From a virus (taxonomy: Duplodnaviria > Heunggongvirae > Uroviricota > Caudoviricetes), in IMG/VR virus record IMGVR_UViG_2737471837_000010, positions 1 through 41,646 of that record: a stretch of DNA of 41,646 nt; one strand, written 5' to 3'. The translations under genes and the position numbers were made by a program. Of the stretch, positions 31,698 through 34,853 are shown piece after piece; position 1 is the first letter of the stretch; every line of letters begins with the position of its first letter. Under the pieces are notes generated by a model, which was not told the origin of the DNA, did not search any database, and saw only the letters and a list, made by a program, of their open reading frames with translations.

Positions 31698-31801
31698 TTC
31701 CTATTGGTATTGCAATGAATGAATAATAGCAATGCGTATTAATCCAAGCAATAGCCAAACGTGTTTTGACCATCAATACGCAAGCGTATAAATTAAAACT
31801 T
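31698..31801. promoter_or_regulatory. Immunity control region: divergent pR (minus) and pRM-like (plus) promoters with operator repeats
   Basis: Minus strand: -35 TTGCTT, 17-nt spacer, -10 TATTAT (plus coordinates ~31746..31751 and ~31723..31728). Plus strand: -35 TTGACC at 31766..31771 and -10 TATAAAT at ~31787..31793, placing the start near the cI ATG at 31802. AATAGCAAT-type motifs recur here and at pL. Confidence 0.6.
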
Positions 31802-32494
31802 ATGAAAAAAGAAACTCTTGCTGATCGCTTAAACCTAGCGATGGAACAATCTGGAATGTCTCAAGGCGCTCTTGCAAAGGCGTCTGGCGTAGCTCAACCC
31901 ACAATCTGGAGACTGACAAGCGGCAACGCGCGCGGCTCAACAAAAATTGTTGAAATAGCTAATGCATTGGGTGTTCGAACAGAATGGCTCTCATCAGGCA
32001 TAGGCCCGATGAGAAATGACGGTCAACAATCAGGGAAGCCTGCTGTCAGCCATTCCAAATACTTCAAAATTGACGTTCTTGATATAGAAGTCAGTGCCGG
32101 GCCGGGAGTCATCAACCGTGAGTTTGTAGAAGTTCTACGCTCGGTTGAGTACTCGTTTGACGATGCTCGTCACATGTTCGATGGCAGGAAGGCAGAAAAT
32201 ATCCGCATCATTAACGTGCGTGGTGACAGCATGTCAGGAACGATCGAACCAGGTGATCTGCTGTTCGTTGATATCACGGTTAAATCTTTCGACGGTGATG
32301 GTATCTATGCATTTCTGTACGACGACACCGCCCATGTAAAGCGCCTGCAAATGATGAAGGATAAACTGCTGGTTATCTCTGATAACAAGAGCTACTCACC
32401 GTGGGACCCTATCGAGAAAGACGAGATGAACCGGGTGTTTATCTTCGGGAAAGTTATTGGGAGCATGCCGCAGACCTACAGGAAGCATGGGTAG
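31802..32494 (+). CDS. cI: Prophage repressor cI (HTH plus S24 LexA-like autopeptidase domain); ATG at 31802 preferred over the ORF track's TTG at 31766
   Basis: N-terminal HTH (LADRLNLAMEQSGMSQGALAKASGVAQPTIWR), Ala-Gly cleavage site (EVSAGPG) and Ser/Lys dyad motifs (GDSMSG ... HVKRL). The TTG at 31766 coincides with the -35 hexamer. Confidence 0.85.
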   Translation: MKKETLADRLNLAMEQSGMSQGALAKASGVAQPTIWRLTSGNARGSTKIVEIANALGVRTEWLSSGIGPMRNDGQQSGKPAVSHSKYFKIDVLDIEVSAGPGVINREFVEVLRSVEYSFDDARHMFDGRKAENIRIINVRGDSMSGTIEPGDLLFVDITVKSFDGDGIYAFLYDDTAHVKRLQMMKDKLLVISDNKSYSPWDPIEKDEMNRVFIFGKVIGSMPQTYRKHG

Positions 32495-32530
32495 GTAGTA
32501 TGTAAAGAATTACCTTTGGTTGATTTGTAA

Positions 32531-32560
32531 TAGCTACCGATTACGTTATCGGTAGCTATA
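32531..32560 (+). terminator. 12-bp perfect inverted repeat with 6-nt loop after cI (terminator or protein-binding palindrome)
   Basis: ATAGCTACCGAT-TACGTT-ATCGGTAGCTAT followed by AAGAAATTTTTAT. Confidence 0.4.
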
Positions 32561-32616
32561 AGAAATTTTTATGTCTTTACTGTGTTTATTTATTCAATAC
32601 TAGTTGGACTATAGCA

Positions 32617-33639
32617 ATGAAAGATAACAGACAAAAAGTCGTTCATTATAAAAAAGCAGTAATCCCACACAGCAAATCATCATTACAAAACATACTACTT
32701 AGTATTATAGGTGAGGGCGGCGTTGCAGAAAAAGTACTTAGTAGACAAGAAAAAATAACACCTTCAGATGAAAATTCGGGGTATCGTTTCTTAAATAAAA
32801 GCGACACATACAAAACTATACTTTTTGGGCAACTGGTTTTATTTGAAAAAGACAAAAGCCAGTCTCTATTAGAGCTTAGTGATAATGTTAAATTTTATGA
32901 CATTAACTCCATCACGTCTAATGATATAATTATTGATGGAGATAAACGTAGTGACAAAAAAAGAGAGTTTGTAGATTCAATTTTATATTTTGGTGTACTA
33001 AACAACCATGTCATGATCGTTCAATCCACATCGCTTCGAGCAAGGGAGCTTGAGGCGCATTTGAATTGGCTAATTAATACATTCACAGATGAAAAAGAAT
33101 CTGTGTTAATGCTTCAAGATAAGCCATCCGAAGAAACGATGAAAAAAATGGAGAAAGCACCAGCCAAGAGCATAAAAATTGGTGGATTACCCATTACTTC
33201 AGAAGTTAAAAATTCAGAGAACCAAACACCCTCCTTTTCAAATGGTTCGGTGAAGACAATAAAATACCGCCCAATAGGGAAAGGAGGTGCGCTACTAAAA
33301 GCATTTTTTGGCGATAACTGGGCAAATGATATAAACATTAAAGATTCATTAGATGAGGCCAATTTACAAGTAAGCCTCGAGATTACATACTTCAGAAAAA
33401 CAAATGATAGCGGTCAAGCTGTTATAGACAGTATTGCTACCTCACTACGACATCTAGATGAGGATGATATTAGCATCAAACTTCAAGGCGGTGGGGAAAT
33501 AACGGGAAAAGAGATAAAATTATCCGGAAAAATTAGCGTTGAACATAACAATGGCATTATTGATGAAAATGATTTATTCTTAAAAATGCATAAGTGGCTG
33601 TTCTCAAAACTTGATGCCGGAGAATTGGTTGCAAAATAA
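32617..33639 (+). CDS. Unknown 340-aa soluble protein in the rexA position
   Basis: Long AT-rich ORF immediately downstream of cI on the same strand; Lys/Asp/Glu-rich with no catalytic motif I recognise. Confidence 0.75.
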   Translation: MKDNRQKVVHYKKAVIPHSKSSLQNILLSIIGEGGVAEKVLSRQEKITPSDENSGYRFLNKSDTYKTILFGQLVLFEKDKSQSLLELSDNVKFYDINSITSNDIIIDGDKRSDKKREFVDSILYFGVLNNHVMIVQSTSLRARELEAHLNWLINTFTDEKESVLMLQDKPSEETMKKMEKAPAKSIKIGGLPITSEVKNSENQTPSFSNGSVKTIKYRPIGKGGALLKAFFGDNWANDINIKDSLDEANLQVSLEITYFRKTNDSGQAVIDSIATSLRHLDEDDISIKLQGGGEITGKEIKLSGKISVEHNNGIIDENDLFLKMHKWLFSKLDAGELVAK

Positions 33640-33660
33640 CCTACCAAAAGGAGGGCGATA

Positions 33661-34167
33661 ATGAAATCGAACATCATCCACCTTATTGGTATGTTGGTCT
33701 TCTATGTTGCTGGTTACTTTTTGTTCAAGTCAGCATTGGGCTATATTACACCGGGTGTTGTCCTAACAGCTCCGTGGGCTGTGGTTGGACTCATGCAATT
33801 GCCATTATCATATTGTATACAAGCCATTTTTAAGGCAAATGAGGCCAATGACCACTCGTCTTTAACCCCTAGTGAGGTTAGGCGATTAGTGCCAATAGTC
33901 AAATCCAAGAGACTGAAATTGGTTTTATTATTAGCTTTCTATGTATTTTCAACTTTGTTTGTAATCTTGGGGTTAATAGCAAGCACAAATGATCAAGCCC
34001 TACTCTTCAGGGTCTTAAAAATTTCAGGTGGATTACTCTTTATTTCTCTCTATACCAGTGTATTCGTTCATAAAATAATGGTTGAGCTTCAAGAGTTTAA
34101 AGCGTTATTAAACCGAAGAGAATCAGAGAAGAAGGAAAGAGAGTCACTCCTTGATAGATTAAAATGA
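33661..34167 (+). CDS. Unknown 168-aa polytopic membrane protein (four predicted TM helices) in the rexB position
   Basis: Strong AGGAGGG ribosome-binding site. Four hydrophobic segments (IIHLIGMLVFYVAGYFLF, VVLTAPWAVVGLMQLPLSYCIQAIF, LKLVLLLAFYVFSTLFVILGLIAS, GGLLFISLYTSVFVHKIM) and a charged C-terminal tail. Confidence 0.8.
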   Translation: MKSNIIHLIGMLVFYVAGYFLFKSALGYITPGVVLTAPWAVVGLMQLPLSYCIQAIFKANEANDHSSLTPSEVRRLVPIVKSKRLKLVLLLAFYVFSTLFVILGLIASTNDQALLFRVLKISGGLLFISLYTSVFVHKIMVELQEFKALLNRRESEKKERESLLDRLK

Positions 34168-34174
34168 CCCCCCT

Positions 34175-34202
34175 CCCCGGCCGTCGTGCCGGGTTTTCTT
34201 TT
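34175..34202 (+). terminator. Rho-independent terminator closing the cI/rex-slot transcription unit
   Basis: Hairpin CCCCGGC-CGTCGT-GCCGGG followed by TTTTCTTTT, starting 8 nt after the stop of the membrane-protein gene. Confidence 0.7.
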
Positions 34203-34319
34203 GCCTCCCCTCATCACACACCGTTCAAAAAACCACCATGCCCCTGCTTCAGTTATCGCTATGCGATGCAAGTCACAAAATTAATTCTTTTTGCTATCAA
34301 ACATTTAATATCAAAACAC

Positions 34320-34380
34320 ATCAGCCAATAGCAATAAGTATTGATATCACCAATAGCAATAGCTATTATCATCATATCGC
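34320..34380 (+). promoter_or_regulatory. pL-like promoter with overlapping operator repeats
   Basis: -35 TTGATA (34341..34346), 17-nt spacer, -10 TATTAT (34364..34369). Operator-like repeats CCAATAGCAATAAGTATTG and CCAATAGCAATAGCTATT overlap the promoter. Confidence 0.6.
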
Positions 34381-34562
34381 AACAACACAACGATACGGCA
34401 ACCACCTGATTCACCGTTGCGATGACCGCTTAGATCCGTAGCTTGAATTTCAGCAGGCTCCGGGAAGTGCGAGGGGTGAAGCGGACGCGTGAACGTCGGT
34501 GTGACCAGCTGAAATTAACTCAACATTTCATACCTCAGTCGCTTCAACGAGGCGGCTTAGTT

Positions 34563-34853
34563 ATGACAACCGGCGGCCATCCACCGCCTGAATACGCGCA
34601 GAAGTCTTTATATGTTCAGCAGCCCAGCTTACGGGCAGGAGTTTTTATGGTTCATCAACATTACGGAACGCAGACCGTTAATCGCGGTGCGGTCATGCCA
34701 GGAATGCTGGTCAAACACAAAGATGGTACCTGGACAGCATCAGCTAATTTACGCGGACGGCTATATCTGCATCGCGGCATCGAGCGCACTTATACCCGTG
34801 ATTTGCTCGTGGAAGTTTTTCTCGACGGACGAGGCAACGGCCTGAATCACTAA
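34563..34853 (+). CDS. Hypothetical protein in the N / kil-cIII position; the ORF track extends the frame to a TTG at 34443
   Basis: 96 aa from the ATG preceded by GAGG; the extended frame contains an arginine-rich stretch (GVKRTRERR). No recognisable lambda N, kil or cIII sequence. Confidence 0.5.
   Translation: MTTGGHPPPEYAQKSLYVQQPSLRAGVFMVHQHYGTQTVNRGAVMPGMLVKHKDGTWTASANLRGRLYLHRGIERTYTRDLLVEVFLDGRGNGLNH

Follow-up and report, generated by a model that had tools for sequence, protein, structure and literature searches.

The RexA/RexB (RexAB) pair of phage lambda was the first abortive-infection system described. To our knowledge, how RexA senses infection and how RexB is switched on has still not been resolved. 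In lambda, rexAB occupies the slot between cI and pL/OL, and a rexB-only transcript is additionally made from pLIT. We analysed a 41,646-nucleotide stretch of a virus of the Caudoviricetes (IMG/VR record IMGVR_UViG_2737471837_000010, positions 1 to 41,646; the whole stretch is referred to below as the window), in which this same slot holds two genes that we have designated X and Y. We infer that X and Y make up a two-component module of the Rex-like type, which excludes phages by abortive infection and travels as cargo that is expressed in the lysogen, and place the probability of this reading at about 0.6.

Five Rex-like systems were counted in a recent paper (PMC12894663). The two-gene systems of mycobacteriophage Sbash (gp30/gp31) and of phage CarolAnn of Gordonia (gp44/gp43) belong to actinobacterial hosts. 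Sbash gp30 has 372 amino acids, and gp31 has 165 amino acids and four transmembrane (TM) helices; the invariant residues of gp31 lie in its central cytoplasmic loop, where R70A or D73A abolishes defence (PMC6426596). The Pseudomonas putida system RexABpp (PP_5643/PP_5644) depends on both of its genes, binds to DNA and makes membranes permeable on overproduction of RexApp (PMC12894663). Mycobacteriophage Butters gp30/gp31, a cytoplasmic and 4-TM pair expressed from a prophage as X-Y is, is also counted as Rex-like, but here the roles are reversed, the effector being the cytoplasmic protein, which its membrane partner keeps sequestered (PMC12894663).

Compared with lambda, X-Y has the same slot, strand and gene order, with a gene for a soluble protein followed by one for a 4-TM protein, and lysogens express both pairs, with the gene for the membrane protein apparently transcribed on its own as well. 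There is no detectable sequence similarity between them. X is 61 residues longer than RexA, with a poorly modelled insert at 190-254, and Y, which is 24 residues longer than RexB, terminates in a cytoplasmic helix that is charged and conserved. X-Y also differs in having its own leader hairpin, an expression pattern unlike that of cI and family members in slots away from cI. X-Y shows every structural and contextual feature by which the systems of Sbash, CarolAnn and P. putida came to be classed as Rex-like. Most likely it is a relative of RexAB that has diverged in sequence and has no name as yet, and not an entirely new type of system.

Genetic organisation of the cassette

Analysis of the window revealed the immunity region of a lambdoid prophage whose orientation is the reverse of that on the lambda map. 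The minus strand carries P, O, cII and cro, and the plus strand encodes, in order, cI, X, Y, a GC-rich hairpin with a T-run, a pL-like promoter, kil, gam, bet and exo. The region had 98.3% identity to the prophage Perceval (genus Bievrevirus) of Escherichia coli LF82, in which the repressor is labelled CI, X 'Hypothetical protein' and Y 'transmembrane protein'. The features that define the slot and its content are as follows.

31766..32494, plus strand: cI-type repressor gene (HTH_3 and Peptidase_S24; CI in the Perceval annotation), left anchor of the slot
32495..34175, plus strand: exchangeable cargo cassette (leader, X and Y) defined by blastn breakpoints; GC content 0.358
32617..33639, plus strand: X, 340 amino acids, predicted RexA/RdgC-type fold, proposed sensor/activator
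33661..34167, plus strand: Y, 168 amino acids, predicted inner-membrane 4-TM protein, proposed effector (open reading frame, AlphaFold2 model, conservation)
34341-34369, plus strand: pL-like promoter TTGATA-17-TATTAT, right anchor of the slot

An initial annotation, made from the sequence, had described a gene for a 340-amino acid soluble protein and one for a 168-amino acid, four-helix protein downstream of the repressor gene on the same strand, in the rexA/rexB slot. The open reading frames, the hydropathy profiles and the AlphaFold2 model of Y agreed with this description, and the slot, between cI and pL/OL, is the exact position of rexAB in lambda. The AT-richness of the cassette noted there was likewise evident from the GC content of 0.358 (32495-34175), against 0.472 for cI and 0.503 for the whole window.

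The window was aligned by blastn with the sister phages 4A7, PhiR30_1, PhiR5_1 and PhiR47_2, in which the cI gene and the kil-gam-bet backbone are 94-98% identical to those of the window. Homology ended at 32490-32494, at the stop codon of cI, and returned at 34173-34176, so the exchanged unit is 32495-34175. The initial annotation had placed the right boundary of an acquired moron at a strong terminator; the terminator is real, but because homology is already regained by 34173-34176 it is part of the backbone common to these phages and does not bound the moron.

Variable cargo at the cI-proximal position, which the initial annotation had suggested looking for, was found in these sister phages, which carry different two-gene defence candidates in the slot. 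In 4A7 the cargo encodes a 353-amino acid protein and an ASCH-domain protein, a pair called GevT/GevA in the PhiR47_2 annotation. The cargo of PhiR5_1 is annotated HipA/HipD, and that of PhiR30_1 encodes a pair of 141 and 310 amino acids. The large subunits of the alternative cargos matched the PADLOC candidate models PDC-M11A (E 3e-133), PDC-M66A and PDC-M63B; the PDC-M11A cargo is the one with the GevT/GevA annotation and the PDC-M66A cargo the one annotated HipA/HipD. As the alternative occupants match defence-candidate models, the content of the slot tends to be defence cargo. The 32494/34176 junctions thus delimit a precise exchange slot for two-gene defence cargo beside cI in Bievrevirus-type lambdoid phages.

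Predicted structures of X and Y

X has no hydrophobic segment (maximum 19-residue Kyte-Doolittle score 1.12) and an isoelectric point (pI) of 6.4. An AlphaFold2 model of X, built from an alignment of 37 sequences, had a mean predicted local distance difference test (pLDDT) score of 70.9; the N-terminal 180 and C-terminal 50 residues were modelled well and residues 190-254 poorly. A Foldseek comparison of this model, one of the checks named in the initial annotation, ranked lambda RexA (8TWQ) first among 350,542 PDB chains (E 3.3e-3, probability 0.89), and the runner-up structures were the relatives reported for RexA itself in the RexA structure paper (PMC11077077). [quoted passage not shown] The order of secondary structure in the X model, where a beta-sheet domain at the N-terminus is followed by an inserted beta/alpha domain and the chain then returns as a C-terminal helix, agrees with this published layout. 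X, the cytoplasmic component of the pair, is thus predicted from the model to have the split two-domain RexA/RdgC-type fold. RdgC and IML3-CHL4 (CENP-L/N), which share this DNA-clamp fold, are housekeeping recombination and kinetochore proteins; they differ from X in lacking a membrane partner and a prophage context.

Hydropathy analysis of Y showed four hydrophobic peaks. Its AlphaFold2 model (pLDDT 85.7) has four long helices, at residues 2-26, 37-62, 70-107 and 112-167, the last of which runs on into a charged cytoplasmic helix. Searching BFVD with the Y model gave as top match a 108-amino acid protein, which by its length and ~32% identity is taken to be the Y homologue of Shigella phage SfIV that is truncated by an insertion sequence (IS). 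The best non-self match was a 165-amino acid Sbash protein, A0A0A7RXT6 (probability 0.99, TM-score 0.48, E 0.06), a match that, taken alone, is weak. Of the Sbash genes annotated near the defence locus, only gp31 has a product of this length, and A0A0A7RXT6 was assigned to gp31 by length.

Conservation was computed across 80 non-redundant Y sequences. Positions conserved in at least 85% were G18, P48, L68, E72, R74, R75, K83, G123, E142, F146, K147, R153 and K158. G18, P48 and G123 lie in membrane helices; the others belong either to the loop that joins helices 2 and 3, continuing into the first part of helix 3, or to the C-terminal helix, and both of these regions are cytoplasmic by the positive-inside rule. 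Y is accordingly an adjacent, co-oriented 4-TM partner of X with cytoplasmic termini and a conserved central loop, and in both Y and Sbash gp31 conserved or critical residues are found in the central cytoplasmic loop. A cytoplasmic activator may dock at these conserved cytoplasmic parts of Y.

Sequence comparison with Rex proteins and defence libraries

BLASTP of the cassette proteins against lambda RexA and RexB gave no match, as the initial annotation had expected in stating that neither protein resembles Rex in sequence. X and Y had no match in Pfam, PADLOC-DB v2.0.0 or NCBIfam, and matched only families of unknown function in PHROGs. The PADLOC-DB v2.0.0 defence models also had no match among eight further family members, and Pfam scans of 37 X-family members and of 147 representatives revealed no match to RexA. 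A search of the PDB sequences with phmmer was negative, and an X-family profile searched against all PDB sequences did not recover 8TWQ. The cross-searches with hidden Markov models (HMMs), of the RexA HMM against the X family and of the Y HMM against RexB, were negative. Comparisons with hhalign were negative for shallow as well as deep alignments. The best of them, between a deep X alignment and RexA, was collinear over 163 columns (X 71-280, RexA 51-216) and non-significant (E 0.073, probability 0.8%); the Y and RexB families aligned with an E-value of 0.036 and a probability of 1.4%. Because these profile comparisons were made and failed, X lies outside the RexA sequence family (Pfam PF15969; PADLOC PDLC02339) and Y outside the RexB sequence family (Pfam PF15968; PADLOC PDLC02340).

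As a positive control, lambda RexA and RexB were recognised by both the Pfam and the PADLOC models. Sbash gp30/gp31, a validated Rex-like pair, was unmatched in Pfam and PADLOC, the CarolAnn proteins are likewise unseen by the Rex models of these libraries, and the RexA profile of this analysis missed Sbash gp30. Rex-like systems are known to be too divergent for sequence methods. An hhalign comparison of X and Y with Sbash gp30/gp31 revealed no sequence similarity, and the Sbash and CarolAnn systems have none to X-Y; the Sbash genes also differ from X-Y in lying away from the repressor.

RexABpp is the closest experimental precedent for the mechanism proposed below and was recognised by the same structural logic. 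The two cases differ in that HHpred ties PP_5643 to RexA at 98% probability whereas the profile comparison of X with RexA was non-significant. The termini of PP_5643 and PP_5644, deduced from published primers, were unmatched among the collected X- and Y-family proteins, and IMG/VR was also searched; four metagenome matches to the terminal peptides were rejected as chance. The relation of X-Y to the PP_5643/PP_5644 superfamily was judged from these primer-deduced termini only, which limits any claim of novelty.

Kiwa (KwaA/KwaB) was considered and rejected: there was no match to DUF4868, or otherwise in Pfam or PADLOC, and the soluble gene comes first in X-Y whereas the membrane gene comes first in Kiwa. 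For a transporter, no domain was found in support. An X-family member in Acinetobacter phage phi1_092021 (PQ859669.1 CDS0052; L177:2983-3984) was named 'DefenseFinder protein' by its depositor. It is encoded two genes downstream of a repressor and is followed by a 167-amino acid Y-like protein; PADLOC v2 did not match it. Given this label in one GenBank record, a DefenseFinder model may already cover the family.

Distribution and contexts of the X-Y family

A word-indexed search revealed 129 homologues of X. An exhaustive profile search gave 790 representative clusters (defined at 50% identity) at E<=1e-3 and 582 at <=1e-10, with proteins mostly of 315-360 amino acids. X and Y occurred together in 114 of 116 loci, the two exceptions being contigs that end just 3' of X, and in every paired locus Y lay directly 3' of X with a gap of -41 to +52 nt. 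Three X representatives with 25-29% identity were each followed by a protein of 167-188 amino acids with no Pfam match, and both of the distant Y partners with readable DNA (2/2) were 4-TM proteins. The median pI of the X family is 6.0, which is mildly acidic.

The hosts are mainly Enterobacterales, Aeromonas, Pseudomonas, Halomonas, Marinobacter, Methylococcaceae and Acinetobacter. The cassette itself, at 99% identity or more, was present in 43 of 5,426 complete E. coli genomes. Named carriers of the family include SfIV, Stx2a_1447, Stx2a_WGPS2 and the Acinetobacter elements Ab105-2phi, Ab105-3phi and phi1_092021. The majority of family members do not adjoin a repressor: an S24 or helix-turn-helix repressor lay directly 5' of the pair in 13-14 of 70 distinct upstream neighbours, and a convergent Q antiterminator was the downstream neighbour in 18 of 73. 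Other neighbours were holins, hicAB and tail genes. In Aeromonas, a small satellite-like element that carries ogr/delta, capsid genes of the GpO/GpN type and a primase has X-Y at its end. A two-gene unit that shifts in this way between the cargo slots of unrelated mobile elements carries the usual signature of a defence module.

In the O157:H7 Stx2a-converting phage Stx2a_WGPS2 (NC_049941.1, 15083-16646), an X-Y pair with 34% identity is convergent with Q and just 5' of methylase, tRNA and stx2A. Decaying copies were also seen. The Y homologue of SfIV (L179:3501-4324) is reduced to 108 amino acids by a transposase insertion, E. coli T309.Ta3 has an IS3 element within the cassette, and X is broken into two open reading frames in three IMG/VR loci (L098, L136 and L137). 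Two further X-Y loci (L013 and L020) are on short contigs of metagenome-assembled genomes labelled Actinomycetes and Ureibacillus; the proteins they encode share 46-51% identity with those of enterobacteria, and the contigs are probably mis-binned.

Expression in the LF82 lysogen

The cassette of LF82 is 99.8% identical to that of the window, and its expression was taken from published RNA-seq data for five conditions (PMC9928086, S1 and S4 tables), given as log2 fragments per kilobase per million (fpkm). The lytic genes kil, gam, cro and cII were at the floor (2.3-3.4), cI was at 6.2-8.1, X (LF82_153) at 4.2-9.6 and Y at 8.4-10.4 (PMC9928086). The cassette is therefore expressed from the repressed prophage, and Y was listed by the authors as a moron, 81-fold over the prophage background (PMC9928086). 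X ranged ~30-fold with condition, from a minimum in overnight lysogeny broth (LB), where Y exceeded it ~21-fold, to a maximum at 6 h in cell-culture medium, where X (9.6) was above cI and near Y (10.2-10.4); it was also flagged as up in macrophages at 6 h relative to LB, with a log2 fold change of 1.82 (PMC9928086).

The large excess of Y over X in overnight LB and of X over cI at 6 h indicate that the cassette is not simply transcribed by read-through from the cI promoter. A separate promoter seems to serve Y. The expression of X responds to growth condition, and its ~30-fold variation implies a condition-responsive promoter in or near the leader of the cassette.

Proposed mechanism and alternative explanations

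The initial annotation had proposed, by analogy, a sensor paired with a membrane effector. This reading is supported by the match of the Y model to gp31, the X-Y pairing, the defence candidates in the slot and the LF82 expression data. Under the proposed mechanism, Y would be an N-in/C-in four-helix inner-membrane protein held in excess and inactive in the membrane, and X a cytoplasmic protein with the split RexA/RdgC fold, probably a DNA-binding dimer. Separate promoters would set the X:Y ratio and keep Y in excess, as for rexB in lambda. When a heterologous phage infects, X would sense either a DNA-protein intermediate of replication or recombination or a phage protein, and would then engage the cytoplasmic face of Y at the L68/E72/R74/R75 loop and the E142/F146/K147 surface of the C-terminal helix. 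This engagement, possibly through channel or pore activity of Y, would cost the membrane its integrity or potential, arrest growth and cause the infection to fail.

Some observations weigh against a Rex-like module. Every sequence method failed to connect X or Y to the Rex proteins, a phage-resistance phenotype for the cassette has not been reported in the accessible literature, and RexA has a pI of 8.6, against the X-family median of 6.0. The last point is tempered by Sbash gp30, which has a pI of 6.1 yet binds DNA. Since the same libraries and profile also miss Sbash gp30/gp31, the sequence negatives were not counted against the Rex-like nature of X-Y.

Among other explanations, the roles of the two proteins could be reversed in a toxin-antitoxin-like arrangement, with X as a growth-inhibiting effector that Y holds inactive until infection. 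Butters gp30/gp31, which is counted as Rex-like, works in this way (PMC12894663); the large excess of Y in overnight LB would fit a sequestering partner, and cargos of the same slot are annotated as the toxin-antitoxin pairs GevT/GevA and HipA/HipD. We nevertheless regard reversed roles as unlikely, as in lambda, Sbash, CarolAnn and P. putida it is the membrane protein that acts as effector (PMC12894663), the closest structural match of Y is Sbash gp31, itself an effector, and X reaches levels near those of Y in 6-h cell-culture medium with no toxicity reported. It is similarly improbable that the pair is a lysogenic moron without a defence role, for instance an aid to membrane or ion homeostasis in the gut or in macrophages, with the RexA-like fold as a general DNA-binding scaffold. 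Such a role would suit the strong dependence of the X transcript on condition, its rise in macrophages at 6 h and the absence of a known phenotype, and RdgC, CHL4 and IML3 have the same fold without a role in defence; however, the pair moves as a unit among slots that classically hold defence cargo, in unrelated prophages and in a satellite-like element, the other occupants of its slot match defence-candidate models, and RexA is by far the closest structure to X.

Two narrower roles appear very unlikely. X might tune the lysis-lysogeny switch of its own prophage, as RexA does in lambda without needing RexB, and Y antagonise it, with exclusion absent or secondary: RexA of lambda is a non-specific DNA binder that shifts the switch towards lytic growth, and RexB antagonises this (PMC11077077), and the cassette is co-oriented with cI and immediately 3' of it. 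This is hard to reconcile with a family found mostly in non-repressor contexts, with Q antiterminators downstream in 18 of 73 and other members by holins, by tail genes or in the satellite-like element. Alternatively, Y alone might provide superinfection exclusion by blocking DNA entry at the inner membrane, X being accessory or unrelated. That Y is a small, very highly expressed predicted inner-membrane protein (81-fold over background), and is apparently transcribed alone, would suggest a function independent of X, but the strict co-occurrence and gene order of X and Y across ~25-100% identity argue for a joint function and the conserved residues of Y face the cytoplasm, not the periplasm.

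For the Rex-like module, a further and more tentative proposal is that X-Y founds an unrecognised branch of Rex-like systems, possibly the largest: ~790 clusters at 50% identity, organised as a mobile two-gene unit in Gammaproteobacterial prophages and at least one satellite-like element, with a distinct effector that has a conserved cytoplasmic C-terminal helix and with condition-dependent expression of the sensor. If this holds, a diversified X-Y family native to E. coli could allow the activation of RexB by RexA to be mapped by covariation and genetics. A Rex analogue beside cI would not surprise a specialist; it is the size and spread of this unannotated family, and the fact that model as well as pathogenic enterobacteria carry it, that would give comparative and genetic leverage on this old problem. 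An annotation gap would also be closed, as RefSeq, Pfam, NCBIfam, PHROGs and PADLOC all leave both genes as 'hypothetical'. The carriers include clinically relevant prophage hosts, namely adherent-invasive E. coli LF82, O157 with Stx2a phages, Shigella (SfIV) and Acinetobacter baumannii, and in clinical strains X-Y may shape susceptibility to phages, therapeutic phages included.

Other features of the immunity region

Additional features in and around the cassette are as follows.

32530..32559, plus strand: perfect inverted repeat with 12-bp arms and a 6-nt spacer, then AAGAAATTTTTAT
32903..32930, plus strand: sigma-70-like consensus within X, TTAACT-16-TATAAT with TG (pattern match only)
33237-33265 and 33363-33391, plus strand: further candidate promoter-like sites inside X
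33649..33654, plus strand: strong Shine-Dalgarno sequence AGGAGG, 6 nt 5' of the start codon of Y
34176..34203, plus strand: intrinsic terminator of the immunity transcript, CCCGGC-loop-GCCGGG (stem 34176-34193) and T-run; backbone
34325 and 34350, plus strand: two operator-like CCAATAGCAATA repeats beside the pL-like promoter (promoter/operator block 34325..34369)

The three sites within X (32903-32930, 33237-33265 and 33363-33391) are candidate promoters for a Y-only transcript, as judged from their sequence. The inverted repeat of the leader had been reported in the initial annotation at 32531..32560; the palindrome is real, and its correct position is one base earlier, at 32530-32559. As RNA it has a predicted free energy (dG) of -21.2 kcal/mol (z = -6.1), and it possibly attenuates or partly terminates transcripts that read through from cI, or serves as a regulator site. 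A role for this hairpin as a regulatory element of the whole family was rejected, as it is present solely in near-identical copies of the cassette.

No N-like antiterminator gene was apparent between pL and gam in the window. The start of cI differs between the mechanical open reading frame, which begins at TTG 31766 (242 amino acids), and the Perceval annotation, which uses a later ATG at 31802 (230 amino acids). A single CAATAGC half-site is located at 31749, on the OR side of cI. The first open reading frame 3' of pL (34443-34853) encodes 136 amino acids and is a phi80-type Kil in the Perceval annotation; the Kil of the sister phages has 68 amino acids.

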